Notes: generated by a model not told the origin, from the sequence alone. 62,207 bases of DNA from an uncultured Alphaproteobacteria bacterium (GCA_944389235.1 CALXLO010000004.1:1-62207); one strand, 5' to 3'. Positions 16,381-51,033 are shown, counted from the stretch's first letter. Made by a program: numbers and translations.

Positions 16381-18285
16381 ATGACTGAAAAATTCCGTAA
16401 AATTGTAAAACAACCGGAACGCACCGCTGCGCGGATTCGCCGGGGAATCGAAAAATTAAAAGTAAATGAATATGTGCGCGAACGCCGCACAGATAAAGAT
16501 GCCGCCGGAATTACAGAAAAAAATCCGAAATTACGCGACACAGCGCAAATTGTTGGATTAAATACTGCAAAATGGTCGGCGTGGCTGGCGGCTGGGGGGG
16601 CACAATTTCTGTTGACTTTGGTGCGGTGGATGGCGTTGGACAATGCGTTCTTGCGAAAGTTAGAAAAAAAGCTGGCATTTATGGACGCTGGGAAAAATAA
16701 AGATGGCCGACCCAAAGCGATATCTGGATTCGCAAAAAAATATCCGAATTTATCCGCACATATTTTATGGTACTTTATGCTGGCGGCAGTTATAGGGGGC
16801 GGGCGCGCGGTATCCGGATTGGATTTAACAAGCGATAAAGACCAAGTGAAAACGGAAAAAATCACGCGCGCGTCAGAACCTGAAAAGTTTGATGATTTTT
16901 ATATGGACCCAACAGTTGATGCGGCGCAGTGGAAAAAAATGCTGGATGCTGTACATCCGTATGTCTTGTCGCACTTGGTGTCCAGCGAAGGTTTTATACA
17001 AACATTGTATGATGATAACGGGGGACGCGGTACTTTGACAATCGGCAGTGGGTTTACATTAAATGACAATGTGCACAGAAATTTTGCAAAAAAAATATTG
17101 GGACGGCATATTGGTAATGGTTCCAGCATCAGTATAGAAGAAAATAGATTGTTAGTGTCTGCGTGGCTGTATCAAAAGGTTTATCCAAAAATCAAATCAC
17201 AAATACATGTACCAATGGACAGTCGCCTGTTCGTTATTTTGGCGGTTGCAGGATATAACAAAGGGGAAAATACATACGCACCTGGGAACAAAGGCAATCC
17301 TGTTGCGGTCGCAATAAATACTGGGCAATCACCAAAACGCATTGCAACTGAATATGTCGCAGCGTTTGGCGGTATCCGGGGAACGCGGTGGGGGGGACTG
17401 CCTAATAAATTTGGTGTGTTGGCGTTGTATTACTTGGGCTATACTGATGATAGTGTTATATTAAATGCAATTGCCGAAGCCCCGTATACCATAGAACCAT
17501 ATTTGCAAGAATATAATGGTCGGTTATTAAAATATAATGGAACAACCAAGACCGCCGTTGCCAATGGGTTTAATATTCCAGACAACTTGTCTGATTTATT
17601 GATGAAAACAAAATCGCGTGTTACACACGGGACAGCACAGCAGGCTGTGAAAAATTATTTAAGTTCCGATATGGTTGCCGCAATAGAACAAGGTAATGTC
17701 ATGTCGGGCGGTGTGACAATAGATTTTGCAAAATATTCTGCAAATAATGTACAAGATAATGTTATCAGTGAATCAGATAAACTAAATGCAGCCGGTGAAG
17801 ATTTATTTTTTGCCGAAAACTATTCTGGGGCGATAAAAAAATTTGATGCGGCATTAAAATCAAACCCGCGCAATTATATCGCATACAGCAATTTGTCTAT
17901 TGCATATTATAAAATGGGTAAATATGACGAAGGACTGCGTGTTGTGCAAAATTTGATAAAGTCGCAATATTTGCGCGACATGCCATCTGATATCAAGGGG
18001 TATACTTATTTTAATGCAGCCTTGTGTCGGACAGCAATGGGTGATGCAGCATCAGATGAATCTGCGCGGCAACAGCACTATGATATGGCGATGAAAAATT
18101 TGCGATTAGCACAAAAGTTTAGTGGCCGTGGATATGATATTTTAGCCGATGAGTTAGAATCAAAAATTGCTGGTAAAAATTTGGCTTATACTGGGGTAAA
18201 TGATTTTAGCCGTGGGGTTAATAAAATAAAAGTTGCTGATAACGCGCGCATAGGGCATGCCGCCGCACAGCGCGATATTATGTAA
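16381..18285 (+). CDS. membrane-anchored GH24 lysozyme-like domain protein with C-terminal TPR repeats
   Basis: SSEGFIQTLYDDNGGRGTLTIGSGFT matches the T4-lysozyme E-x8-D-x(5-7)-T catalytic spacing. Hydrophobic segments lie near the N-terminus. TPR-like AENYSGAIKKFDAALKSNPRNYIAYSNLSIAYYKMGKYDEG. The ATG abuts the mucR-like stop (TAGATG). Confidence 0.7.
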   Translation: MTEKFRKIVKQPERTAARIRRGIEKLKVNEYVRERRTDKDAAGITEKNPKLRDTAQIVGLNTAKWSAWLAAGGAQFLLTLVRWMALDNAFLRKLEKKLAFMDAGKNKDGRPKAISGFAKKYPNLSAHILWYFMLAAVIGGGRAVSGLDLTSDKDQVKTEKITRASEPEKFDDFYMDPTVDAAQWKKMLDAVHPYVLSHLVSSEGFIQTLYDDNGGRGTLTIGSGFTLNDNVHRNFAKKILGRHIGNGSSISIEENRLLVSAWLYQKVYPKIKSQIHVPMDSRLFVILAVAGYNKGENTYAPGNKGNPVAVAINTGQSPKRIATEYVAAFGGIRGTRWGGLPNKFGVLALYYLGYTDDSVILNAIAEAPYTIEPYLQEYNGRLLKYNGTTKTAVANGFNIPDNLSDLLMKTKSRVTHGTAQQAVKNYLSSDMVAAIEQGNVMSGGVTIDFAKYSANNVQDNVISESDKLNAAGEDLFFAENYSGAIKKFDAALKSNPRNYIAYSNLSIAYYKMGKYDEGLRVVQNLIKSQYLRDMPSDIKGYTYFNAALCRTAMGDAASDESARQQHYDMAMKNLRLAQKFSGRGYDILADELESKIAGKNLAYTGVNDFSRGVNKIKVADNARIGHAAAQRDIM

Positions 18286-18304: not shown

Positions 18305-20314
18305 ATGAAAGTCTGGGTTAATTATAATGATGCGCGGTGGCGCAAATATAAAATTAATTTTGAAAAAATTGTAAATGCGTCTGTGCGTAATGTTCGCCCC
18401 GATGCCGAGGTTTCAATTACTCTGACCAATGATGCAGAAATAAAAAAAATAAATAAACAATATCGTGATATAGATAAACCAACAAATGTGTTGTCTTTTG
18501 AATTGGGTGATGATGTTTTGTTGGGTGATATTTATATTTCGTTAGATACAGTGATGCGCGAAGCAGAATCTGAAAATATATCTGTGGAAAATCATACCAC
18601 ACACATGGTTGTGCATGGGATGTTGCATTTACAAGGCTATGACCATATTCGCGATGATGATGCAGTTATAATGGAAAATCAGGAAATAAAAATATTAAAA
18701 AAATTACATATCAAAAATCCGTATACGGCGGATTCGTGCACATACAGCGATACTTGTTCTTGCCCAGGCGATAAATTTATTGCATTTTTTAATAAAATAA
18801 AAATTCGTCCAGACGGGTTTTGGCAATATGTCATTATGGCGCTGTGTGGTGCAATCGCGGCATTTGGTTTTGCGCCATTTAATTTGTGGTGGGCAACATT
18901 AATTGCAATTGGCGTGGCGTATTATTTAATGACACGCGGTTATAAAAAATATTCTGTTTTTGGGGCGTGGCTGCGCGCTGCGCCGTTCGGGGCGGCGTAT
19001 GCAATCGCTATGTTTTGGTGGGTTATAAATTCAATATATGTTGTACCAGAACTGGCGGCACAATTTGCAATATGGACAATCCCAGCCTTGATTGGAATCG
19101 GTTTGGTTGGGGCGATAATATTTTCGATACCATTTGTTGTTGTTATGTGTGTGCGCACTGTGCCGGCATGTCGGGCAATTTTGTTTGCTGCGGTGTGGAC
19201 ATTGGTGCTGTGGCTGCGTGAATGGGTGTTTACAGGATTTCCGTGGAATCCAATCGCAAACATTACGATGCCGTTTCCAGAATTGGCAAATTCTATGTCT
19301 GTGTGGGGGGCACTGGGGTTAAGTTTTATAATTGTTGGATTTATTGTATCTGTTGTTGATGTTATTGCACGACGCGGAAAAATGTGTTGGTTCCCGTTTA
19401 TAATATTCTTGTCTTTATTAATCTGTGGGGGATTTATCGGATATAAAAATATTAAATATTCGCAGTGTGATGGCGAAAATTATGGGCCGGTAATTCGTAT
19501 AGTGCAACCAGCACGCAGCGCATCGCAAAAGGCAACACATTCGCGCAGTGATGCAATTCGTAATGCAAATGAAAATGTCCGCGCCATGATTGCGTTGGCA
19601 ACTGCGCCAGGGGCACCAGATTTAATTGTATTTCCGGAAACTTCGTATCCGTTTGTAATAACAGACGGCGATAATATGCCAATTGCGCATATACTAAAAT
19701 CAGATATATTGATTGGTGCAACAACATATTCAGATGGTTTGATGTATAATTCATTAATTTCTGCGTTACCAAGCGGGCAAATTAATCATATATACAGCAA
19801 ATCACACTTGGTGCCGTTTGGTGAATATCGACCGTTTGGTGATATTATTCCAACCCCCGGTCAGTTAACCCCAGGTACAGGACCAGAAATTATGACAATT
19901 AATGGTTTTAATTTTGCGCCGGCAATATGTTATGAGATTGTGTTTTCTGATTCATTGATTCCTGTAAACGAAAATCCGAACGCGATTGTCAATATTACAA
20001 ATGATACTTGGTTTGGTACAACCCCGGGAACATATCAACATCTGGATATGGTGCGCAGATATGCCATAGAATCTGGGGTGCCGATTGTTCGTGCAAATTA
20101 TTCAGGTATCAGTGCTTTTGTTAATTCAGATGGTGAAATTTCGTCTTTTATCCCGGTCGGTGTTTCGGGGTATGCGGATGGCACGGTATGTGGCGCACAT
20201 CTGACGGCATATCGTGCAATTGGCCGCGATGGATGGATGATAATTATATTGCTGTTTTCGTGTATCTGTGTGATGTTTTTGAACTATCGTTGTGAAGAAA
20301 ATAAACCATTATGA
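18305..20314 (+). CDS. in-frame fusion of the rRNA maturation RNase YbeY and apolipoprotein N-acyltransferase Lnt
   Basis: Residues 1-~140 are YbeY (NVLSFE, HGMLHLQGYDH). Residues ~165-669 are Lnt: an 8-TM region plus a nitrilase-like domain (FPETSYPF, KSHLVPFGEY, ICYEIVF). There is no stop codon between them. Confidence 0.85.
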   Translation: MKVWVNYNDARWRKYKINFEKIVNASVRNVRPDAEVSITLTNDAEIKKINKQYRDIDKPTNVLSFELGDDVLLGDIYISLDTVMREAESENISVENHTTHMVVHGMLHLQGYDHIRDDDAVIMENQEIKILKKLHIKNPYTADSCTYSDTCSCPGDKFIAFFNKIKIRPDGFWQYVIMALCGAIAAFGFAPFNLWWATLIAIGVAYYLMTRGYKKYSVFGAWLRAAPFGAAYAIAMFWWVINSIYVVPELAAQFAIWTIPALIGIGLVGAIIFSIPFVVVMCVRTVPACRAILFAAVWTLVLWLREWVFTGFPWNPIANITMPFPELANSMSVWGALGLSFIIVGFIVSVVDVIARRGKMCWFPFIIFLSLLICGGFIGYKNIKYSQCDGENYGPVIRIVQPARSASQKATHSRSDAIRNANENVRAMIALATAPGAPDLIVFPETSYPFVITDGDNMPIAHILKSDILIGATTYSDGLMYNSLISALPSGQINHIYSKSHLVPFGEYRPFGDIIPTPGQLTPGTGPEIMTINGFNFAPAICYEIVFSDSLIPVNENPNAIVNITNDTWFGTTPGTYQHLDMVRRYAIESGVPIVRANYSGISAFVNSDGEISSFIPVGVSGYADGTVCGAHLTAYRAIGRDGWMIIILLFSCICVMFLNYRCEENKPL

Positions 20315-20342
20315 TATTTTATTTTCATTAATATTACAATTG

Positions 20343-20351
20343 TGATATAAC
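20343..20351 (+). promoter_or_regulatory. possible extended -10 promoter element for RNA copy 1
   Basis: TGaTATAAC ends 6 nt before the first nucleotide of the P0 hairpin (20358). No good -35 element. Confidence 0.3.
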
Positions 20352-20357
20352 CATCAT

Positions 20358-20533
20358 GACGCTGAGGGTTTCAGCGTTGGGCTTCATAACCCGTGAACGG
20401 CGTTCCGCGTGGAACGAAAAAACTCCTGCATGGCAAAAAGGCAGGAGAATTGCGTTATATATCGAAGGCGCAATGCTATTCCGTTCAATAGTTATGAATC
20501 TCCTGCCACCGGTAAGTATTTACGGTGGTTTTT
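20358..20533 (+). ncRNA. structured RNA, copy 1 (unassigned class; candidate cis-regulatory leader or riboswitch with intrinsic terminator)
   Basis: Helices P0-P5 plus a terminator, all conserved by compensatory changes with copy 2 at 27637-27812. It ends 20 nt upstream of ATG 20553. Confidence 0.6.
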
Positions 20534-20552
20534 GTCTGTTACGGGGGAAAAT

Positions 20553-21467
20553 ATGCGAATGCGAAATTTGTTGTTTGGTGCCGTATGCATGGCGATATAT
20601 TGTCCAATAAATGCGATTGCTGATGCATCTGTGTGTGAAGAAGAATACAGGACCTGTATGGAACAACAGGGGATGTCTGTGGATGAATATTTTGTTACAG
20701 ATGGTCAAGATGCCGTCTTTTTGGCCGATGCAGAAATGCAAGCGCAACTGGATGAAATAAAAGAAGCATTAACCGGGCGCGATTATCCGTTTGTACAATC
20801 GTTGAATGCGTTACCAATTGAACGACAAATGCGACGCGTACGCGGATATTTGGCGGATAAATCTTTTCAATATTATAAAAATAAATATATGGCGATGTTA
20901 CAAGATGTGTCTGAACTGACAGGGCGGGCAATTAAAACACAAAATACCGATGGACAAGAAATTTCGTGGTTGGACCGGGGACAATTAGATAATATGGATG
21001 TTTGTTATAATTTGTTGGAAAGACAGGCGTGCGACTATCCAGATGGTTTTTTAGAGTTTTCTGTAACACATAATATGCGTGAACCACAATCGTTGTTGGT
21101 GCAAATGGATTCACCAGAAACAAATACGCATTATTCTATATCAATTCAGTTAACTAATGACAGTACGATGGCCTTTTCAAGTGAACTATATGCCCAGTAC
21201 GATAATATCAGATTAAGGGTGATGGCAGAAGAGTATGACTATGATGATTGGTATGTATGGCGTAATCAAGAGGTTGCAGATATTCGTGCCGGAAAATACA
21301 TTCCAATGCCAGACGGTGAACAGCCAGATGAAAATTCACCGTTTGGTGCAATGGCAATAAAAATGGATGATACGCGTGAGTGGGAATCTAATAATCTCCC
21401 CAGTGTGCGCGCCAAGGGCAGAATACGGGAATACAGCGCATCTGATACATCAACATTTGGTCGGTGA
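20553..21467 (+). CDS. secreted hypothetical protein
   Basis: ATG 20553 is preceded by a GGGGGA SD. Signal-peptide-like N-terminus MRMRNLLFGAVCMAIYCPINAIA. I recognise no domain. The longer track ORF would read through the structured RNA. Confidence 0.6.
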   Translation: MRMRNLLFGAVCMAIYCPINAIADASVCEEEYRTCMEQQGMSVDEYFVTDGQDAVFLADAEMQAQLDEIKEALTGRDYPFVQSLNALPIERQMRRVRGYLADKSFQYYKNKYMAMLQDVSELTGRAIKTQNTDGQEISWLDRGQLDNMDVCYNLLERQACDYPDGFLEFSVTHNMREPQSLLVQMDSPETNTHYSISIQLTNDSTMAFSSELYAQYDNIRLRVMAEEYDYDDWYVWRNQEVADIRAGKYIPMPDGEQPDENSPFGAMAIKMDDTREWESNNLPSVRAKGRIREYSASDTSTFGR

Positions 21468-21469
21468 TT

Positions 21470-21714
21470 ATGAATATGAAACATGTAATGTTGCTTTTTT
21501 TCATATTAATTACACCAATTATGGATGCAATGGCAATTGATGCAGTACCCCAAAATCCGTACGCTGATTTATACGATGAAACAGAAATGTTAGAAATTGT
21601 CAGTCTGTTAATTTGCAAACAGGTGGAATAACACTGGGGGTTGGCAGTGTTGGTGGTGCCGTTGGTAATGTATTAATCAATGGACTGGGTGGTAATTCGG
21701 GTACCAATGATTAA
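21470..21714 (+). pseudogene. decayed paralogue of the glycine-zipper protein gene at 33296-34040
   Basis: A 53-codon ORF gives a signal peptide plus AIDAVPQNPYADLYDE (compare AGIDDLDLGNNPYLPIYQK). After a stop, another frame encodes GGITLGVGSVGGAVGNVLINGLGGNSGTND* (compare GGIILGSGVVGGAVGNLIINAGDNPD*). Confidence 0.55.
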
Positions 21715-21914
21715 GTTTTTAACTGGGTCAGAATCCATACGCGTATCGCAGATGATAGGTTTGTGCCCGGCGCACGCGTATCATCAATTTCTGTTATTAT
21801 CGACGCAACAGATTTTTTCTTGTCTTTGGCGATGCGTTGCAGTTCGTCCACAAATTCGCGTTCCAGCGATATGCTGGTTTGATGTCCTGATAAAGATACA
21901 GACAATTTTGTCAT
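21711..21914 (-). CDS. ribbon-helix-helix (RHH_4-like) protein
   Basis: SVSLSGHQTSISLEREFVDELQRIAKDKKKSVASIITEID...NLSSAIRVWIL matches the alphaproteobacterial RHH_4 pattern. Start chosen at MTKLSV. Confidence 0.75.
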   Translation of the reverse strand: MTKLSVSLSGHQTSISLEREFVDELQRIAKDKKKSVASIITEIDDTRAPGTNLSSAIRVWILTQLKT

Positions 21915-21916
21915 AA

Positions 21917-22366
21917 TTAAAATTTCCCCGCCATCAAGCAATCGTACATCCCAGCCCATGGATTGTCATATTTGCGCATAACAGATGTGTTCATATTATT
22001 TAACATATAACATGTACCAAACGAATCAAACCCCAGCCAAAATAAATCGTTGCGTCCAAATATTGTTTTTCCCCGCAGTTGTGTAATTGCAGATAATTCA
22101 GAATTTATTGTCTGGATATTAGGTACAGGATATTTTATTCCGCGATGTATGGGGTGCGGACCAAATATATATCCGCTGTCCATAATAATTCCGCCGCATT
22201 GCGCGTATAATTCAATTAAAAATCCGGGTAATATAGCCGCCCGCATTTGTTGCAATGTTGTGTTGGCAAGTATTATTTCTTGTTGTGATGCCGCAGGTGC
22301 CAAGTACGCGTTATGCGTCTGTAAGGCGGTCAAGAAATCTGTACATGTTGCTATGTTTTTATTCAT
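21917..22366 (-). CDS. SUKH/SMI1-KNR4-like protein (candidate immunity-type protein)
   Basis: 149 aa. The layout ...SQQEI..A...L...ILPGFLIELYAQCGG...IFG...FGRNDLFWLGFDSFGTCYML... resembles SMI1_KNR4. Recognised by eye only. Confidence 0.45.
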   Translation of the reverse strand: MNKNIATCTDFLTALQTHNAYLAPAASQQEIILANTTLQQMRAAILPGFLIELYAQCGGIIMDSGYIFGPHPIHRGIKYPVPNIQTINSELSAITQLRGKTIFGRNDLFWLGFDSFGTCYMLNNMNTSVMRKYDNPWAGMYDCLMAGKF

Positions 22367-22374
22367 GTTGATTT

Positions 22375-22884
22375 TTATACCTCTATCCCGCGGTCTGCCG
22401 CAATTTGTGCCGCCATTTGACTAAGTCTGTCGGATGTTGCATTACCGCCATCGCCCCCGGCGGCGCTGTGTGTTGGGACATATATCTTTTTCACCGGATT
22501 CGGCAGCCATATAATATCTGCATCAGATTGTGATAAAATAAATCTATCCAAATTATGCGAATGCGGAAATGTCCAGCACATAAATAAATTTTCTGTCGTT
22601 AATTGTCCGCCCCATACCAATGGTATACGAAATCTGAACGATAAATTAGGCGGCAATCCGTGTCCTGTTATTAATGACATAAATTCTTCTTGGGTCAGGT
22701 TCAGAAACGCCAGTTCTTCGACCGAATCGGTTAATGACAGCGTAAATTCATGACATAGTCGTTTATATGTTTGAAACCAGTCTGGGGCAACAACAGATGG
22801 GGTAGGGCTGAACTGGGTTAATGGCATGTCTGACATGCCCATTTCCGCCAGTTGTTTTTCAGCCATTTCCTTGGTTAATTGCAT
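22375..22884 (-). CDS. hypothetical protein with a degenerate HNH (beta-beta-alpha-Me) like segment
   Basis: RFRIPLVWGGQLTTENLFMCWTFPHSHNL parallels the HNH consensus HxIPLSxGGxxxxxNLxxLCxxCH, but the first His position is Phe/Arg. Its start overlaps the upstream stop by 1 nt (TAATG). Confidence 0.45.
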   Translation of the reverse strand: MQLTKEMAEKQLAEMGMSDMPLTQFSPTPSVVAPDWFQTYKRLCHEFTLSLTDSVEELAFLNLTQEEFMSLITGHGLPPNLSFRFRIPLVWGGQLTTENLFMCWTFPHSHNLDRFILSQSDADIIWLPNPVKKIYVPTHSAAGGDGGNATSDRLSQMAAQIAADRGIEV

Positions 22885-23843
22885 TACTTTATGCCTATGT
22901 GATTAATAACCGCGTCAATATATTGTGAATATGCGTCAAACATACCGTCATCGTCGTCTGGCAGTGGCGGGTTTGGATATTCACTCATATATTTGCGCAA
23001 ATCAGATACCGTGTCAAACATCAATACATCTTGAAATTCGGATACTGCCGCATCAGGCGCAGCGATTACAAAACCATTTATGTTTATATCTGTTTCGTCC
23101 AGTGTGCTGGTAAATATTTGATTAAGTCTGTCCATAACGGCGCGTATATCAGTTGTTTTTATGCCAACACCGCCAATCCAAATATTTTCGTTTGTGCCGA
23201 TTGCAATCAGTGCAATTGGAATATTATTTATACGCGGATGCGGTTTTATAACATAACCAGCAGATTCAAATATTTCTTGGATTTCAGATAAATCTTGCTG
23301 GGGCAGCGCCGCAGGTGTATTAGTTGTGTCATGTTGTGGTTGCGGCATCGCGGATGCCGGTTGTGCGGTGTGCTGGGTATAAAGTTTTGTTGTGTCAATC
23401 GCAGATAAATTTAATCGTGGTGGTCGCGCAGTATCTGATGGCGCAGAATTATGCGGTGTTGGAACCGGTGATTGACTGGTCCCAGATATAATGTCCAATG
23501 TTGATGCGGCTGAATCAGATGTTTTTGTATCATCTGTTTTGTTTGTTGTTTTTTGTTTGTGTTCAACACGCATAATTGGCAATTTGATTTTTCGCCGCCG
23601 TGGTCGCAGAATAAAATATAAACTGGTAATTGCAATAAATACAATCATAACCAGTGATATATAAAAGCCCGGCCGTACAGGTGTTTGTGCCGCCTGCATA
23701 TATGACAAGTATTGCCAATGTTGCCCAGAAAATATGTTAAAACCATATACTGTATTAAACCAAAAACATGTCCCCAGTGTTATAGCCAACAGCCATAATG
23801 CGCATAACAGTATATAATCTAGTCTGAATTTCATAATTTTCAT
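22884..23843 (-). CDS. 2-TM membrane protein with a P/T/Q-rich linker and a C-terminal globular domain of unknown function
   Basis: Two N-terminal hydrophobic helices, then RPRRRKIK, then a ~90-aa low-complexity linker, then a ~135-aa domain (IQEIFESAGYVIKPH...IALIAIGTNENIWIGGVGIK...). Confidence 0.6.
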   Translation of the reverse strand: MKIMKFRLDYILLCALWLLAITLGTCFWFNTVYGFNIFSGQHWQYLSYMQAAQTPVRPGFYISLVMIVFIAITSLYFILRPRRRKIKLPIMRVEHKQKTTNKTDDTKTSDSAASTLDIISGTSQSPVPTPHNSAPSDTARPPRLNLSAIDTTKLYTQHTAQPASAMPQPQHDTTNTPAALPQQDLSEIQEIFESAGYVIKPHPRINNIPIALIAIGTNENIWIGGVGIKTTDIRAVMDRLNQIFTSTLDETDININGFVIAAPDAAVSEFQDVLMFDTVSDLRKYMSEYPNPPLPDDDDGMFDAYSQYIDAVINHIGIK

Positions 23844-23886
23844 TTGATTTTAATTATAGCATATTTGTGATAAAGTAAAAAGCGTA

Positions 23887-24555
23887 ATGATTAATAACGA
23901 TTTTATTCTTGATAATGATAAACAGATGTCTTTGTGGTGTGCCCCCGATGCAGAACCAACTGATTTAGCGCACGCAGCATCGCGTATCATTGCGCATGGC
24001 GGGGCAAATATATCAGTGGTCCCTGATGCTGTGTCTGTTATATGGCCTTGGTTGGAAAATAAAAATGCTAGAATTTTATCGCGATTTTATATAACAAAAA
24101 CAGATTCAGATACTATGTCTGATGTTGTGAAAAATATAAATACAGTATTCAAACATGGTGCAGATGGCGCGCAATTGTTTATGAAATTCAAAGATATGTC
24201 GTCTGTTGTTTCACAAATGCGACAAATTCGTGATGATTTATTTTTTAACAAGTCTTTGTTTTTCGGGTTTGATATGCGCGATATTGGTCCGTATTCGTGG
24301 GGCGATGTGTGGGCGGCGATTCGCGATATGCGCGCAAATGGTGTTTTACTGGCGATGCCGCGCGACAGTGGTGAAAAATCAGACTTTGTCGGTCGTGTAT
24401 ATGCGGCATTAAATGCAGCAGATAATATAAATTGCGAATTGCATTTTTATGTTGCGTCCACGCGCGTGGAACAAGTGTCGCGTCTGGTTCAGGCAATGCG
24501 ACCTGATTTAATGCAACAGACACAATTTTTCTTTAATGCGTCGGCGCGTGAATAA
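23887..24555 (+). CDS. hypothetical protein
   Basis: 222-aa ORF divergent from the 23843 operon. No TM segment or signal peptide. Only a vague alpha/beta-barrel-like pattern, so not assigned. Confidence 0.5.
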   Translation: MINNDFILDNDKQMSLWCAPDAEPTDLAHAASRIIAHGGANISVVPDAVSVIWPWLENKNARILSRFYITKTDSDTMSDVVKNINTVFKHGADGAQLFMKFKDMSSVVSQMRQIRDDLFFNKSLFFGFDMRDIGPYSWGDVWAAIRDMRANGVLLAMPRDSGEKSDFVGRVYAALNAADNINCELHFYVASTRVEQVSRLVQAMRPDLMQQTQFFFNASARE

Positions 24556-25174
24556 TCAAGTATTTTGGTGTTTGCGTACCTGCCATATTTTTTTGCTGGT
24601 ACCGTGTGCGAATCGTTTTTATGTCTGGGGTTGTGTATGTTAAATCAGCGATTCGTGATTGATTTATAATCCAGTCATAATATTCCCAATGGTCTGTACC
24701 AATTATTATTTCACCATTTTTCGTTAACCGATTTGATAATTGATGTAAAAAATCAGCGTGCAACAAGCGGCGCTTTTCGTGTCGTGCCTTGGGCCAGGGG
24801 TCTGGATGCAGTATCCAAATTTGTTCAAATTGCGAATCGGTATTACGCAGAAAATCGCGCACATCGTCGGCAAAAATACGAATGTTTTTATATTCGTCGC
24901 GAACAGCATTCAATTCGTTCGTAATTGCAGATAATAATGACGCAACGCCATTCATAAATGGTTCTGCGCCAATTATGATTTTTCCCGGGTTTTGCCGGGC
25001 AATTTCACGCAAATGTTCACCCGCGCCGAATCCAATTTCCAGTATTTTACCGGTATTTGCCGGCAAATTTGTGGGTAAAATTGTTGGTAAAATCCGGTCA
25101 ATCAGCATCGTTTGACGGGCCGATAATTTTTTGCCGTGTCTGCGGCCAAATGTTCTTAATTCTTGTTTTTCCAT
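24533..25174 (-). CDS. trmB: tRNA (guanine-N7)-methyltransferase
   Basis: Motifs ILEIGFGAGEHL (SAM-binding), HPDPWPKARHEKRRL. Start set to MEKQELRTF (ATG 25174). Confidence 0.9.
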   Translation of the reverse strand: MEKQELRTFGRRHGKKLSARQTMLIDRILPTILPTNLPANTGKILEIGFGAGEHLREIARQNPGKIIIGAEPFMNGVASLLSAITNELNAVRDEYKNIRIFADDVRDFLRNTDSQFEQIWILHPDPWPKARHEKRRLLHADFLHQLSNRLTKNGEIIIGTDHWEYYDWIINQSRIADLTYTTPDIKTIRTRYQQKNMAGTQTPKYLIIHAPTH

Positions 25175-25221
25175 ATATTTAGTATAAAATTCGAAAGTTG
25201 ATAAAACAAGGATATTTAATA

Positions 25222-26799
25222 ATGAGACAAGGTTTATCCCCAGATTTAATTGCGCGTGTGTTGGGCGGTGCGCCAAAATATACTTTGGCAGAGTTAGAGG
25301 AAAAATTCCCGCCGCGTAATTTGCCGGATGGTGCGTTTGTAACGCGTTTTGCCCCCAGTCCCACGGGCTATATGCACATTGGCGGCATGTACCAGGCATT
25401 GATTGATTGTAAATTGGCGTATGATACGGGCGGTGTTTTTATGCTGCGCATCGAAGATACTGATACCAAGCGCGAAGTTGCAGATGCGGTTAAAATTATT
25501 CAAGATTCTATGCATCGATTTGGACTGCAATACAATGATATGCCGGAATATGGTCCGTATTACCAATCCCGGCGGCGCGATATTTATCACAGTGTGGCGG
25601 CCGATTTATTGGCGCGTGGTTTGGCGTATCCGTGCTTTTTAACCGCGGACGAGATGGCGCGCATTCGCGAAAATCAAAAGGCTGCGGGATTTGCCACCGG
25701 CATTTATGGTGAATTTGCGCGCGACCGCGATATTACCGATGATGAAATAATTCGTCGTTTGGACGCCGGCGAAGTGCCATCTGTTCGTTTGTATTCAACT
25801 GGTAACCCCGAACAACGTATTTTCTGTAAAGATGCAGTTCGTGGTTCAATTGGTTTTCCGGAAAATAACGAAGATATTGTTTTAATTAAATCAAATGACG
25901 GTTTGCCGACATATCATTTTGCGCATCTGTGCGATGACCACTTTATGCGTACAACACATGTTGTGCGTGGCGAAGAATGGTTGCCGTCATTCCCGCTGCA
26001 TATTCAATTGTTTCGCATGATGGAATGGATGCCGCCGATGTATATCCATACCGCAACAATTGATAAAATTGATGCGGATACCGGAAAACAGCGAAAATTA
26101 TCCAAGCGGCACGACCCCGAGGCGAATGTTGCATATTTCCTGAACGACGGTTGGCCAACAGGGGCGGTGTTGGAATATCTGTTTAATATTGCAGCGTCTG
26201 GATATGAAGAGGCAAAGAACAAAGGTCAGGTTAAAAATATTTGGGAATACCCGTTGCGGCCAAAAAAAATCCCGATGTCTGGCGCGTTGTTTGATATGAA
26301 AAAGTTAGAATGGTGGGCGCGCGAATTTATCGGGACACTGTCGGTGGATGAATTGGTGCAATGTGTTCGTGATTGGGCAAATGAATATGATTTGCAATGG
26401 GCGGCGCGAATCGGCAGCAACCCAGAATATCTGAAAAACATTTTGGCAATTGAACGCGATAATCCAAAGCGTATACGCAAAGATTTTATTACATGGAAAC
26501 AGACTTTGGATGAAGTGTCTTATTTTTGGGACGATTTGTTTGCACCGAATACCGAATATGCGTTTAATCACGATTTACTGTCAGCGTTTTTGAAAACATT
26601 TGATATTTGCGATGATAAAGACGCGTGGTGGAATAAAATTGTTGAAATTGCCGGAATGGCCGGTGTTAAAAATGGCGATGTTGCCATGAATTTGCGTGTT
26701 GCGTTGACGGGACGCACAAATACCCCAGACCTGTATTCAATTATGCAGGTTATGGGTTCAGACAGGGTTTGTGCACGAATAAAGGACATAATAAAATGA
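25222..26799 (+). CDS. gltX: glutamate--tRNA ligase (class I)
   Basis: Motifs RFAPSPTGYMHIGG (HIGH), RIEDTD, KLSKR (KMSKS). About 35 extra N-terminal residues. Start uncertain: ATG 25222 or TTG 25198. Confidence 0.85.
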   Translation: MRQGLSPDLIARVLGGAPKYTLAELEEKFPPRNLPDGAFVTRFAPSPTGYMHIGGMYQALIDCKLAYDTGGVFMLRIEDTDTKREVADAVKIIQDSMHRFGLQYNDMPEYGPYYQSRRRDIYHSVAADLLARGLAYPCFLTADEMARIRENQKAAGFATGIYGEFARDRDITDDEIIRRLDAGEVPSVRLYSTGNPEQRIFCKDAVRGSIGFPENNEDIVLIKSNDGLPTYHFAHLCDDHFMRTTHVVRGEEWLPSFPLHIQLFRMMEWMPPMYIHTATIDKIDADTGKQRKLSKRHDPEANVAYFLNDGWPTGAVLEYLFNIAASGYEEAKNKGQVKNIWEYPLRPKKIPMSGALFDMKKLEWWAREFIGTLSVDELVQCVRDWANEYDLQWAARIGSNPEYLKNILAIERDNPKRIRKDFITWKQTLDEVSYFWDDLFAPNTEYAFNHDLLSAFLKTFDICDDKDAWWNKIVEIAGMAGVKNGDVAMNLRVALTGRTNTPDLYSIMQVMGSDRVCARIKDIIK

Positions 26800-27542
26800 C
26801 AAAATCAAAACAGGTTGTTCGTAAACAATTAAAACAGGTTAAATCTGATTCGCGTGCAAATCGCTTGTTGCGTTTTTTTCATGCCACTGGTTTGTTTCGT
26901 TGGGAACGCCCCAGTACACATGGTGAAGAAGTGTTAAATATTTTGACACATGGTATCGGTGTTGGATTGGCAATTGCGGCGCTGACGCTGTTGGTTGTAT
27001 TTGCAGCGTTGGCACATAATCCCTGGGCGGTTGTATCATGTGCAATTTTTGGCGCAACGATGATAATGCTGTATTTTGGGTCAACAATGTGTCATGCAAC
27101 AATTGGACGGCGCGGTGAAAGTTTTTTTGAAGTATGGGACAGCGTTGCCATATATGCACTGATTGCCGGTACATACACGCCGTTTTTATTGGTTAATTTG
27201 CGCGGAGGATTGGGATGGACTGTATTTGGCATATTGTGGGCGATTGTAATTTTTGGCGCGATTATGAAAATGCGGCATCCAAAGCAACAGCCAAAATGGA
27301 TTGTTGCATTATATCTGGTTATGGGGTGGACATTGCTGTTTATATTGCCGGCAATGTTGCATAATATACCGCCGCGTGGGTTATGGTTTATATTGGCGGG
27401 CGGATTGTCTTATTCATTTGGGGTAATATTTTATTTGTGGCGGCGTATGAAATTTTCGCATGCAATATGGCACTTGTTTGTAATCGGGGGCAGTGTGTGT
27501 TTCTTTTTCGCAGTGCTGTTTGGATGTATAATTGATTTTTAA
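26796..27542 (+). CDS. hemolysin III / PAQR family membrane protein
   Basis: 7-TM protein with motifs EEVLNILTHGIG and a C-terminal HAIWHLFV. ATGA overlap with the gltX stop. Confidence 0.85.
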   Translation: MTKSKQVVRKQLKQVKSDSRANRLLRFFHATGLFRWERPSTHGEEVLNILTHGIGVGLAIAALTLLVVFAALAHNPWAVVSCAIFGATMIMLYFGSTMCHATIGRRGESFFEVWDSVAIYALIAGTYTPFLLVNLRGGLGWTVFGILWAIVIFGAIMKMRHPKQQPKWIVALYLVMGWTLLFILPAMLHNIPPRGLWFILAGGLSYSFGVIFYLWRRMKFSHAIWHLFVIGGSVCFFFAVLFGCIIDF

Positions 27543-27566
27543 TCTTTTGGATATTCTGAATTGATG

Positions 27567-27597
27567 CCCCGTGGCGTGTCCATGGGGTGTTTTTTTT
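27567..27597 (+). terminator. Rho-independent terminator after the hlyIII-family gene
   Basis: Hairpin ccccgtgg-cgtgt-ccatgggg followed by tg-tttttttt. Confidence 0.75.
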
Positions 27598-27600
27598 AAC

Positions 27601-27634
27601 TTGCGCGAATCGTTTTTTATGAATTAAAATTCAT
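27601..27634 (+). promoter_or_regulatory. possible promoter plus a perfect 7-bp inverted repeat upstream of RNA copy 2
   Basis: TTGCGC, 18 nt, then TAAAAT (27625-27630), ending 6 nt before the P0 hairpin. The palindrome atgaatt-aa-aattcat (27619-27634) overlaps the -10. Confidence 0.35.
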
Positions 27635-27636
27635 TT

Positions 27637-27812
27637 GACGGCGGGGATTTTCGTCGTTGGGCCTAACTAACCCGTATCTATCGGTGTCAGAAATGACATT
27701 AAACAACCAGCCTGTGGGCAGGCTGGGGTGGTGTGAATATATTGAATAAACACCGCAATTTCCGATAGAATTGTTAGTTAGCCTCCAGCCACCAAAATAT
27801 TTTGGTGGTTTT
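27637..27812 (+). ncRNA. structured RNA, copy 2 (same unassigned class as 20358-20533)
   Basis: Same length and same P0-P5 architecture, with a GAAA tetraloop on P3. Terminator is ccaccaaaatattttggtgg-tttt. It ends 32 nt upstream of ATG 27845. Confidence 0.6.
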
Positions 27813-27844
27813 ATTTAGTTTGATAACAAATTAGGTTGGCCGAT

Positions 27845-28774
27845 ATGCAATTAAGAAAATTTATCGTAAATATGTTATGTCTGTTTATACCAAACAAAAA
27901 AATCAGACATAAATTGCGCGACAGTTTTTGTAGACCGCGCGTTAGTAAACAAAAATATATAAACATAAAGCAACAATGGAAACAGCACGGAAACGGGGAA
28001 AAATTACTGCCAGCACGGTTTGAAAAATATGACTTGGTCTTTGGTATTGGTGCAATGTGTCATGTCAGAACATATCTGGATATTTTCAAATTGGCACGAT
28101 TTACAACACCGTTTGATTGGACTGCGGGGGCATGGCCATGTAATTTTGATAAAATTCCCGGTATCGGGCGTGACAGCAGATTCCGAGAAAAAATAGAATG
28201 TCTGTATAATGATTTTAATGGATATTATAATCCAGAAGATATGCGTATAGTAAATTTAGCGGTGGCACCAGGAATTGCACATCAACATATTGTAAATATT
28301 AAAACAGGGATTTTTATACCGCATATATTTCCATTTGATGTCAGTATGGAACAATATATGCCAACATTTCGTGAAACAATAAAGCGACGCGCAGATAGAT
28401 TAATTAATGCGATAAAACAGTCGGATAAAATATTGATTGTTTGGATGAATCATGTTTTTGATTACAGAACAATTCATGATTTACCGGTTCCTGATATAGA
28501 TATAATAAACGCTGTTAAGCGGTTAAATAAAAAATTTGCAGGCAAGCAGATAGACTTTGTATTTTTTGAACACGACGGGACTAAAGATAAGTTTGAGTAT
28601 GAAAAACAAGAAGTTGCGCCAGGTGCATACCGTATTTTATCAAATCATTTTTTCTTGGCTTCAGAATATGGATATAAATATAAATTGCCAAGTACACCGT
28701 TCTTTATTCCATCATTATGTATTGCCGAAGCGTTGGATAATATCAGTCTGACTGGGAAAAAGGTTGTCGATTAA
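27845..28774 (+). CDS. DUF1796-like (putative papain-like cysteine peptidase fold) protein, paralogue 1
   Basis: YDLVFGIGAMCHVRTYL...TPFDWT...HIFPFD matches the DUF1796 LGxxC / PFDW / H pattern. N-terminal LRKFIVNMLCLFIPNKKIRHKLR amphipathic motif. Start taken at ATG 27845 by analogy with paralogue 2. Confidence 0.6.
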   Translation: MQLRKFIVNMLCLFIPNKKIRHKLRDSFCRPRVSKQKYINIKQQWKQHGNGEKLLPARFEKYDLVFGIGAMCHVRTYLDIFKLARFTTPFDWTAGAWPCNFDKIPGIGRDSRFREKIECLYNDFNGYYNPEDMRIVNLAVAPGIAHQHIVNIKTGIFIPHIFPFDVSMEQYMPTFRETIKRRADRLINAIKQSDKILIVWMNHVFDYRTIHDLPVPDIDIINAVKRLNKKFAGKQIDFVFFEHDGTKDKFEYEKQEVAPGAYRILSNHFFLASEYGYKYKLPSTPFFIPSLCIAEALDNISLTGKKVVD

Positions 28775-29817
28775 GATTGTTGACATTTTTATTGTTTGAT
28801 GTTAGGAATATTTTGCTAGATTATGTATGAAAGGTAAACAATGAAATTAAGAAAATTTATTGCAAATTTAGTTTGTGTTTTTATACCAACAAGAAAAATT
28901 AGACACAGTGTTCGGTATTCTTTATCTGGACAGAAAAAACGCGATGCAGCAAAGAAAGAATTGGAAAAACAGGCTTATTTGAAACTGAAACAAGAATGGT
29001 TAAAGCACACAGGTGGTCAAAAATTACTGCCAGCACGGTTTGAAAAATATGACTTGGTCTTTGGTATTGGCGCAAATTGCCAAGTTAGAAGGTATTTAGA
29101 TATTTATAAATTAACACAATTTTCAACACCACTGGATTGGACAAATGGCTTACCACCATTGAATTATAAACAAAGTGCTGATTTATATAGAGATACCAAA
29201 TTCAAAGAAAAAATAAATTTTGTATGTAATAATTTTGCCGGATATTACGAGTCACAAGATATGCGACTGTGGGCTGATGATATAGTTTTAGGGCAGATAC
29301 ATCATCAAGTTGTAAATATAAAAACACAAATTACTTTTAGACATATATTTCCAATAGACATCAGTATGGAACAATTCTTGCCACAGTTTTGTGATATAAT
29401 GGCGCGGCGCGCAAAAAGATTAACCAATGCAATAGAAAATTCGGATAAAATATTAATTGTCTGGATGCATCGTGTTTTTGACCATCGTGATTGGGCAGAC
29501 AAACCTGTGCCGGACCAAGATATAAAGAATGCAGTGAAAAAATTAAACAAAAGATTCCCAGGTAAAAAATTTGATTTAGTATTTTTTGAACATGACGGAT
29601 ATAAAGATAAGTTTGAGTATGAAAAACAAGAAGTTGCGCCGGGTGCATACCGTATTTTATCAAATCATTGGTGCACCGCATCAGAATATGGTTATAAATA
29701 TACTTTCTTGAATCTTCCATTTTATACACCATCATTATGCATTGCCGAAGCGTTGGATAATATCAGTTTGACTGGGAAAAAGGTTGTCGATTAAGATTGT
29801 TGACATTTTATAATGTT
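27999..29817 (+). repeat. tandem gene duplication in a 1020-bp register with mosaic identity
   Basis: 27999-28050 equals 29019-29070 (52/52 nt). 28559-28797 is almost identical to 29579-29817, including 20 nt past the stop codon. The interior has diverged strongly. Confidence 0.85.
28841..29794 (+). CDS. DUF1796-like protein, paralogue 2
   Basis: Same architecture: MKLRKFIANLVCVFIPTRKIRHSVR; VFGIGANCQVRRYL; TPLDWT; RHIFPID. The C-terminal ~75 aa are nearly identical to paralogue 1. Confidence 0.6.
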   Translation: MKLRKFIANLVCVFIPTRKIRHSVRYSLSGQKKRDAAKKELEKQAYLKLKQEWLKHTGGQKLLPARFEKYDLVFGIGANCQVRRYLDIYKLTQFSTPLDWTNGLPPLNYKQSADLYRDTKFKEKINFVCNNFAGYYESQDMRLWADDIVLGQIHHQVVNIKTQITFRHIFPIDISMEQFLPQFCDIMARRAKRLTNAIENSDKILIVWMHRVFDHRDWADKPVPDQDIKNAVKKLNKRFPGKKFDLVFFEHDGYKDKFEYEKQEVAPGAYRILSNHWCTASEYGYKYTFLNLPFYTPSLCIAEALDNISLTGKKVVD

Positions 29818-44600: not shown

Positions 44601-44676
44601 TGGTGGGCGCGCAGGGACTCGAACCCTGGACCCACTGATTAAGAGTCAGTTGCTCTACCAACTGAGCTACGCACCC
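44601..44676 (-). tRNA. tRNA-Lys (anticodon CUU), CCA encoded
   Basis: The reverse complement GGGTGCGTAGCTCAGTTGGTAGAGCAACTGACTCTTAATCAGTGGGTCCAGGGTTCGAGTCCCTGCGCGCCCACCA folds into a 76-nt cloverleaf with a 7-bp acceptor stem including one G-U pair. A hairpin plus T-run follows on the minus strand. Confidence 0.95.
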
Positions 44677-50957: not shown

Positions 50958-51033
50958 GGCCAGATAGCTCAGTTGGTAGAGCAAGGGACTGAAAATCCCT
51001 GTGTCAGTGGTTCGATTCCACTTCTGGCCACCA
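50958..51033 (+). tRNA. tRNA-Phe (anticodon GAA), CCA encoded
   Basis: GGCCAGATAGCTCAGTTGGTAGAGCAAGGGACTGAAAATCCCTGTGTCAGTGGTTCGATTCCACTTCTGGCCACCA folds into a 76-nt cloverleaf. Confidence 0.95.

Follow-up and report, generated by a model that had tools for sequence, protein, structure and literature searches.

A leader RNA with two conserved and competing folds in Alphaproteobacteria of the animal gut

The stretch of DNA analysed here, 62,207 nucleotides (nt) from an uncultured Alphaproteobacteria bacterium (GCA_944389235.1 CALXLO010000004.1:1-62207; the window), carries two copies of a structured leader RNA. The leader is probably a cis-acting, two-state terminator/antiterminator RNA, in which a short strand at the end of the domain, the tail, can pair either within the base of an intrinsic terminator or with one strand, the 3' one, of the internal hairpin P4. 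Two sets of helices were found, both covarying and each excluding the other, together with an overlap of tail and terminator and a fixed arrangement of leader and gene. The leader occurs in about 120 copies in animal-gut Alphaproteobacteria (Candidatus Enterousia, order Rs-D84), belongs to no described RNA family and is previously undescribed.

Two conserved, competing folds

Copies 1 and 2 were folded separately and gave a common architecture of a 5'-terminal hairpin (P0), long-range helices P1 and P2, hairpins P3 to P5 and a terminator, with z-scores against shuffles of -7.8 for copy 2 and -5.5 for copy 1. The sequence that the two copies have in common is limited to scattered blocks, namely GGGC, AACCCGT, ATATAT.GAA, GC.ATT and the tail.

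Features of copy 2 (region 27601-27844):
27625-27630 (+), putative -10 hexamer TAAAAT, inside a palindrome and at a position, 34 nt or so before GGGC, that fits the family-wide -10-like hexamer
27637-27645 / 27650-27658 (+), P0, from the minimum free energy fold; P0 columns show mutual information in the family
27659-27662 (+), invariant GGG(C)
27664-27671 (+), P1 5' strand
27671-27673 (+), CCC
27677-27684 (+), P2 5' strand, from the fold and family covariation
27685-27689 / 27694-27698 (+), P3 hairpin, from the fold and family covariation
27707-27714 / 27719-27726 (+), P4 hairpin
27721-27728 (+), ggctgggg, alternative partner of the tail
27728-27756 (+), P5 hairpin with the highly conserved 15-nt loop GAAUAUAUUGAAUAA
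27755-27759 (+), GCAAU
27762-27769 (+), P2 3' strand
27770-27774 (+), AUUGU
27773-27780 (+), P1 3' strand
27783-27790 (+), tail ctccagcc, the switch strand
27787-27814 (+), intrinsic terminator from the fold, stem 27787-27796 / 27801-27810 followed by a T-run

Features of copy 1:
20343-20348 (+), putative -10 hexamer TATAAC
20358-20534 (+), whole leader, from the fold and covariance model
20358-20365 / 20371-20378 (+), P0
20379-20381 (+), GGG
20383-20390 / 20491-20498 (+), P1
20394-20400 / 20481-20487 (+), P2
20401-20406 / 20411-20416 (+), P3
20423-20429 / 20441-20447 (+), P4
20449-20456 / 20467-20474 (+), P5
20500-20507 (+), tail ctcctgcc
20505-20511 / 20523-20529 (+), terminator, then a T-run

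An earlier note, made from the window sequence, had proposed that the tail of each copy is complementary to a strand of that copy's own P4, and reading the window sequence bore out the complementarity and its coordinates in both copies. In copy 1, ctcctgcc is perfectly complementary to ggcaggag (20440-20447), with t20499-a20448 as a ninth pair; in copy 2, ctccagcc and ggctgggg form eight antiparallel pairs, one of them G-U (t27784-g27727). The tails of these two copies from one genome differ (CUCCUGCC versus CUCCAGCC). The claim that P4 differs completely between the copies was overstated, as the P4 3' strands, GGCAGGAG and GGCTGGGG, are identical at six of eight bases and are both variants of the consensus GGUUGGAG.

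Homologues were collected by scanning 185,579 species genomes (GTDB) with the pattern GGGC...AACCC...ATATNGAA...GCWATT, from which tail and P4 were excluded. This returned 93 stretches, about 73 of them in gut or rumen metagenome-assembled genomes (MAGs) named Candidatus Enterousia, 'Alphaproteobacteria bacterium' or 'Rickettsiales bacterium'; the other 20 or so came from unrelated taxa, had no tail and were not recognised by a covariance model trained on 17 well-aligned leader copies. The model identified 94 copies (92 distinct) among the collected loci and, within the window, the two copies only, copy 1 scoring 84.4 bits. A scan of metagenomes with a second, different pattern, likewise without tail or P4, added 31 further copies from human gut and other metagenomes. 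One typical copy lies on a 6-kb contig (CAVGNU010000022.1) binned as Bacteroides fragilis, which is probably a binning error because all other true matches are alphaproteobacterial. Three copies were found in decay: L074 (2332-2493) has lost the P1 3' strand, tail and terminator, L078 (4171-4313) the P2 3' and P1 3' strands, and one of the two in L067 (604-745) the P4 3' strand. Rs-D84 is an uncultured order with genomes of approximately 0.75-1.0 Mb, for which a partner-dependent lifestyle has been proposed (PMC12306168).

Rfam 15 yielded only two tRNAs when the whole window was searched at the gathering threshold, and chance-level matches elsewhere only for the region 20000-28200 at E<=10. 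A consensus-type copy (L023) gave nothing relevant at E<=10 and twelve homologous loci a single tRNA, while no description of the leader was found in the literature on Enterousia, Rs-D84, RF32 and DUF1796.

The copies were placed in a structure-guided alignment (A5) built with a model that contained none of the helices of the second fold. On A5 the first fold (Fold A, P1 to P5) had 96.7% of its cells paired and compensatory changes in 30 of 34 pairs; none of 500 shuffles reached the observed values, and slid-partner controls were about 45% paired. The second fold (Fold B) was predicted unaided by RNAalifold from a plain MAFFT alignment of 76 copies and consists of a nine-pair helix between the P4 3' strand and the tail, a GCAAU/AUUGU hairpin with the P2 3' strand in its loop, and a GGG/CCC hairpin with the P1 5' strand in its loop. 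The nine pairs of the tail helix were 95.9% paired on A5, with compensatory changes in five of them (including UA:75/CG:8, UA:79/AU:7, AU:75/GC:9 and UA:42/GC:23/UG:13/AU:6), and GCAAU/AUUGU covaried from AU (71) to UA (15). Of 91 genome copies, 88 had a tail duplex of 8-9 base pairs (bp), and in all 31 metagenome copies its length was 9 bp. P4 itself is 5-9 bp long and usually weaker, the tail being the better partner of the P4 3' strand than the P4 5' strand with which it competes. Homologues whose tail does not match the P4 3' strand, which the earlier note had set as the finding that would overturn its proposal, were looked for among about 120 homologues and the outcome was negative.

Mutual information, calculated without any structure, gave the same partners. 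The best partner of tail position -1 was P4-3' position +1 (0.79); this pair falls outside P4, which cannot itself form it. The two W positions of GCWAU/AUWGU were reciprocal best partners (0.74), and tail positions 2 and 5 had their predicted P4-3' columns as best partners (0.54 for tail 5 and P4-3' 4). After average product correction, the Fold B pairs ranked immediately behind the helices of Fold A. In genome and metagenome copies alike, each variant tail was complementary to its own P4 3' strand:

Tail CUCCAACC (majority), P4 3' strand GGUUGGAG
Tail CUCCUGCC, P4 3' strand GGCAGGAG
Tail CUCCAGCC, P4 3' strand GGCUGGGG
Tail CUCCAAACC, P4 3' strand GUUUGGAG (GGUUUGGAG in the unaligned L020), with an insertion in all three strands
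Tail CCCCAAUCC, P4 3' strand GGUUGGGG
Tail GUCCAGCCCC, P4 3' strand GGGGUUGGAU

Since P4 and the tail helix use the same P4 3' strand, they are mutually exclusive. On geometric reasoning, the GCAAU/AUUGU hairpin would be incompatible with a standing P2, because the linkers to the P2 3' strand are 0-2 nt, and the tail would be unable to reach the junction with P1 and P2 standing, because it starts 1-2 nt past the base of P1. In copy 2, Fold B pairs GCAAU with AUUGU and loops out the P2 3' strand; GGG has CCC as its partner in Fold B and the start of the tail in Fold A; and the tail pairs with 27721-27728 in Fold B or with GGG and the 3' strand of the terminator in Fold A. A hybrid pseudoknot, in which P1 and P2 would stand while the tail paired with the P4 3' strand, was considered and rejected on geometry, as the tail would lie about 15 bp from the junction and GCAAU/AUUGU would, by the same uncomputed reasoning, need a zero-length linker across P2. 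The earlier note had seen the tail:P4 competition and missed that the switch is global, involving P1 and P2 through the two further alternative hairpins.

As a separate observation, seven divergent copies (L069 twice, L030, L021, L065, L068 and L067) have U in place of the C of GGGC (A5 consensus position 27, window 27662) and, jointly with it, A in place of the G of GCAAUU (position 113, window 27755). The two bases might form a long-range pair, or the joint change might be the signature of a subfamily; in metagenome copies the C varies while the G is unchanged.

Terminator, promoter and the proposed switch

Of about 90 distinct copies, 84-86 have a terminator-like hairpin and U-run past the tail, with an overlap, mostly of 3-5 nt, between the tail and the 5' base of the hairpin. 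In both window copies the last two C residues of the tail are the first two nucleotides of the terminator stem, as had been claimed: C20506-C20507 open the stem CCACCG/CGGTGG in copy 1, and C27789-C27790 form the first two G-C pairs in copy 2, where the strict stem is CCACCAAAA/TTTTGGTGG. When tail bases were barred from pairing, the mean predicted stability of the terminator hairpin went from -11.0 to -3.9 kcal/mol, a mean cost of 7.1, with about a dozen copies losing no more than 3 kcal/mol. Together with the mutual information between the tail and the P4-3' columns, this agrees with the earlier reading of the covarying, exclusive pairing as an expression platform.

Most copies have promoter-like hexamers and a terminator of their own. 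In a family-wide positional analysis, 47 of 86 copies had a TATAAT-like hexamer 33-35 nt upstream of GGGC, its end about 7 nt short of P0, and TTGA lay about 17 nt upstream of the hexamer. Transcription would therefore start at approximately the first base of P0, which fits the start site predicted earlier for both window copies; a scan for the strict sigma-70 consensus left the promoters of both uncalled. A perfect palindrome, ATGAATTAAAATTCAT (ATGAATT-AA-AATTCAT, 27619-27634), does overlap the putative -10 of copy 2 as had been noted, and is kept in close relatives (L001-L005). No special role could be upheld for it: as an operator it was rejected, since palindromes of this size are common in the AT-rich window (52 versus about 34 expected) and L006 and L009, orthologous loci of greater distance, do not have this one.

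In transcripts that stop at the tail, the best structure with the tail helix was less stable than Fold A by a mean of about 12 kcal/mol. When the tail helix was enforced, RNAfold added the GCAAU and GGG/CCC hairpins unprompted. At equilibrium, successive prefixes of copy 2 folded into GGG/CCC for as long as the P1 3' strand had yet to be made, and after that into Fold A with the terminator. With the P1 5' strand unavailable, the gap between the folds shrank to a mean of about 3.5 kcal/mol (1.1 in copy 1 and 7.8 in copy 2).

These results can be drawn together in the following mechanism. A leader of about 175 nt, with its own sigma-70-type promoter, would decide whether polymerase stops at a terminator 10-40 nt before the gene. 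Fold A would be the default, OFF state, in which P1 and P2 close a four-way junction with P3, P4 and P5. The tail CUCCAACC would be dispensable there, its first bases lengthening P1 through pairs to the invariant GGG and the final 1-5 bases forming the bottom of the terminator stem, so that transcription terminates. In Fold B, the ON state, the tail would take the P4 3' strand (8-9 bp), ousting the usually weaker P4 5' strand; the GCAAU/AUUGU and GGG/CCC hairpins would keep the rest of Fold A apart, and the terminator, deprived of its bottom pairs, would be read through. On these energetics termination would be the default and read-through would need P1 to be blocked or destabilised. The likeliest route of control would be whether P1 forms, because preventing P1 lowers the gap from about 12 to about 3.5 kcal/mol. 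The stability of P1 is the usual control point of riboswitches.

The leader has a constant relationship to the downstream gene. The covariance-model match ends 3 nt past the tail, and in about 80 of 92 copies an open reading frame (ORF) on the same strand, usually with a Shine-Dalgarno (SD) sequence, begins 33-60 nt past the match. Homologues of the copy 2 genes in syntenic loci of related metagenomic contigs carry the same leader, the RNA-plus-gene arrangement being syntenic in L004, L006 and L009. Tandem leader arrays were found at no fewer than four loci (L030, 1039-1690, three in a row; L069, 5659-6057, - strand; L134, 430-802, - strand; L169, 430-848), in which each copy has its own -10-like box and terminator, no ORF intervenes and one gene follows the array. 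The copies in these arrays might regulate in tandem, might be left over from lost genes or might be RNAs that stand alone.

This last possibility bears on the family as a whole, which might be a stand-alone small RNA (sRNA) gene: a promoter, a 175-nt RNA and a constitutive terminator, with action in trans or as a decoy, an alternative pairing that serves folding or turnover, and a position next to genes that simply reflects a compact genome. The hexamers and strong terminator of nearly every copy, the ORF-less gaps between tandem copies, the very conserved 15-nt P5 loop as a possible binding site and the great stability of Fold A with the terminator all fit such a gene. Nevertheless it is an unlikely explanation, as the 33-60 nt before the ORF leave no space for a second promoter, the orthologous RNA-plus-gene pair has been retained across species, and a constitutively terminated RNA has no need of a selected tail helix that is stronger than P4 and competes with the base of the terminator. 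Less likely again is a translational switch, in which the tail (CUCC/CCCC) would be an anti-SD strand masking the ribosome-binding site and the P4 3' strand (GGAG/GGGG) a decoy SD by which that site is freed. The tail does begin CUCC and the P4 3' strand does end GGAG, and the four copies that have no U-tract (L033, L085, L060 and L090) combine the tail CCCCAAUCC with a GGGG SD. These four, with L033 at 1204-1430, and L058 are leaders of one orthologous small secreted protein; L058 has the same tail and SD and retains hairpin and U-run, with the tail not overlapped. A GGGG SD is present in seven of eight copies with a CCCC tail, an association that involves only about three independent lineages, and the complementarity to the SD is 4-5 nt only. 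In the large majority of copies, moreover, the hairpin and U-run lie between tail and SD, so that a terminated RNA never reaches the SD. Masking is thus more likely to be a second platform, confined to a minority of copies, than to explain the family in general, and the group of five may represent such a second, translational platform of the same switch.

The covariation might also be phylogenetic hitch-hiking, CUCCAACC and GGUUGGAG having been inherited together in a recently spread cassette or repeat with no functional switch. Most copies do have identical tail and P4 sequences, the variants cluster in subfamilies (a CUGCC class and a GGGU/ACWAUU class), decayed copies exist, and the shuffle controls ignore the relatedness of the copies. 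This is the least probable of the three alternatives and indeed very improbable, because the P1, P2, P3 and P5 sequences differ in almost every copy and are still paired, and the copies must therefore be old and under structural selection. The ninth tail pair, in addition, is of four types (UA, GC, UG and AU) across subfamilies, the slid-partner controls, in which relatedness is kept, fall to the level given above, and the independent metagenome set conforms throughout.

Several points weigh against the terminator/antiterminator reading itself. Its support lies wholly in sequence comparison and thermodynamics, and every sequence is from a MAG or a metagenome; with tail and P4 identical in most copies, the independent compensatory events are far fewer than the sequences, and GGG/CCC is essentially invariant, so covariation is uninformative there. 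The predicted stability of Fold B is far below that of Fold A, and Fold B lies off the equilibrium prefix-folding path; an effector or kinetics would therefore be needed. The overlap of terminator and tail is only 0-1 nt in about ten copies, and the U-tract is missing after the tail in the four copies named above. The upstream copies in tandem arrays have no gene of their own; the terminated RNA might also serve some function itself, or these copies might be remnants. Lastly, the downstream genes have no common metabolic theme, which is atypical of metabolite riboswitches and gives no clue to a ligand. Leader-peptide attenuation of the trp/his type was rejected, there being no conserved leader ORF: an ATG is missing from the first 40 nt of 25 of 94 copies, and the ORFs range from 2 to 51 codons with scattered stops.

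Downstream genes and genomic setting

The genes that follow the two window copies are not homologous to one another:

20553-21467 (+), gene after copy 1, 304 amino acids (aa) with an N-terminal signal-peptide-like segment and no Pfam match
27845-28774 (+), first DUF1796-like gene after copy 2
28841-29794 (+), second DUF1796-like gene after copy 2, 61% identical to the first

The earlier description of the copy 2 genes as two tandem DUF1796-like genes held, these being paralogues whose homologues carry PF08795/DUF1796. Copy 2 is flanked by gltX and thrS, yet the leader precedes the DUF1796-like genes. Across the family, about 86 downstream proteins fell into 45 sequence clusters; the proteins include 15 small secreted Cys-rich ones, 8 DUF1796-like ones and 7 larger secreted ones, of which four were scanned and gave two with Listeria-Bacteroides repeats and one with a weak ephrin-receptor-like cysteine-rich match. 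Also present were GT2 and GT1 glycosyltransferases, at least six XRE-type helix-turn-helix (HTH) proteins, a GmrSD nuclease, an EamA transporter and a YgjV membrane protein, and many further proteins were hypothetical ones with a signal peptide. The regulated set is thus one of accessory, surface and secretome genes with no single pathway. A regulon of surface-related or secreted proteins, as proposed in the earlier note, was broadly right and too narrow.

The DUF1796-like proteins start with (F/L)IPxxK(I/M)R(H/R)xxR (window 27845-27920 and 28841-28915), a motif that recurs in the GT1 glycosyltransferase under control of the leader at L076, and the downstream protein at L012 has a basic stretch like it at the C-terminus. 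A weak N-terminal match to CgtA was also seen. The N-terminal motif in common with GT1 and the CgtA match suggest that the DUF1796-like genes may act on surface glycans.

Other features of the window were recorded alongside. Upstream of copy 1, a single 669-aa ORF (18305-20314, +) joins a YbeY endoribonuclease to an apolipoprotein N-acyltransferase (LNT_N and CN_hydrolase), a fusion that is also one gene in the related contigs L004, L006, L008, L009 and L010. It is preceded by a gene for a 634-aa protein (16381-18285, +) with C-terminal tetratricopeptide (TPR) repeats and a weak phage-lysozyme-like region, an arrangement kept in L004, L006 and L008. GC skew is strongly positive (0.07-0.23) up to about 48 kb and then near zero or negative, with the peak of cumulative skew at that point and tRNA genes close by (44604-44676, -; 50958-51030, +); the region of about 44-52 kb may be a replication terminus or origin.

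Comparison with known systems

As in riboswitches, a conserved covarying domain was found in the 5' leader between a promoter-like site and an ORF, and mutually exclusive structures that include the terminator were found computationally; downstream genes of a common pathway or transport function pointing to a ligand were not. Among possible effectors a small signalling molecule, which would make the leader a true riboswitch, is ranked first, if only tentatively, because the copy number per genome and the mixed regulon resemble those of second-messenger riboswitches. A dedicated RNA-binding protein that reads the invariant P5 loop or the GGGC/CCC hairpin ranks second and is somewhat less likely still. 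Because the switch strands vary from copy to copy within one genome, a common trans-acting RNA is unlikely to pair with them, be it at the P4 5' strand or at the tail. A partner of this kind encoded in the window was rejected, as the 62 kb contain no GGTTGGAG, and complements of the P5 loop at chance level only, and hence no complementary candidate.

A wider and equally tentative proposal is that the leader might represent a new riboswitch class, or an RNA sensor of equal standing, that reads a signalling molecule or a cue derived from a partner or host. By refolding of its whole domain, with both conformers conserved, it would turn on gene by gene a set of secretome, surface-glycan and accessory functions, and could be the main dedicated regulator of surface composition in an Rs-D84 lineage with very few protein regulators. 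If the model is true, one portable promoter-leader-terminator cassette controls many secreted and surface proteins of an uncultured, reduced-genome gut lineage with genomes of about 0.9 Mb (PMC12306168), and the leader marks the genes likeliest to mediate contact with host or partner cells. The effector, once identified, would be new either as the ligand of a riboswitch or as an RNA-binding antiterminator. In this orphan regulatory RNA, with about 120 natural variants, both states can be read from covariation, which is rare because conservation of antiterminators is usually poor.

Terminating riboswitches resemble the leader in being structured 5' leaders with covarying helices around a multi-helix junction, in having one strand common to an alternative helix and the intrinsic terminator, and in probably depending on how stable the closing helix P1 is. 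Tandem arrangements, and possibly the use of two platforms (terminator and SD masking), are further features that the leader has in common with many riboswitch classes. In contrast to terminating riboswitches, the gene context of the leader suggests no ligand, its antiterminator uses the P4 3' strand instead of the P1 3' strand, its alternative fold is highly conserved and includes two helper hairpins, and the whole aptamer-like domain must unfold. The cyclic di-GMP riboswitches (c-di-GMP-I or GEMM, and c-di-GMP-II) likewise occur in several copies per genome, sometimes in tandem, and control mixed secreted, surface, glycan-related and regulatory genes, not one pathway; however, the leader matches neither RF01051 nor RF01786 and its architecture is different, leaving regulon style alone as the similarity.

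T-box leaders are also long and structured, set a conserved antiterminator against a terminator and are known in tandem. The leader RNA described here differs from them in having no match to RF00230, no Stem I, specifier or T-box sequence and no aminoacyl-tRNA synthetase or amino-acid genes downstream. Its competing strands, moreover, vary among copies of one genome, which argues against a common RNA partner.

Competition between terminator and antiterminator within a leader is shared with the BglG/SacY ribonucleic antiterminator (RAT), ANTAR targets, PyrR and LoaP-type leader hairpins, and control of accessory and surface gene sets with the LoaP and RfaH-like regulons. The regulon style of the leader resembles that of second-messenger riboswitches or of specialised antiterminator proteins. 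The leaders of protein-dependent antitermination also have a conserved loop readable by protein, but the targets there are one or two hairpins, in contrast to a 150-nt multi-helix domain with two complete folds. The leader is unusual among these systems in an antiterminator built from the 3' strand of an internal hairpin, in an alternative fold that is equally conserved and has two helper hairpins, and in forming a cassette that includes its own promoter and is spread over mixed surface and secretome genes of a reduced-genome lineage.

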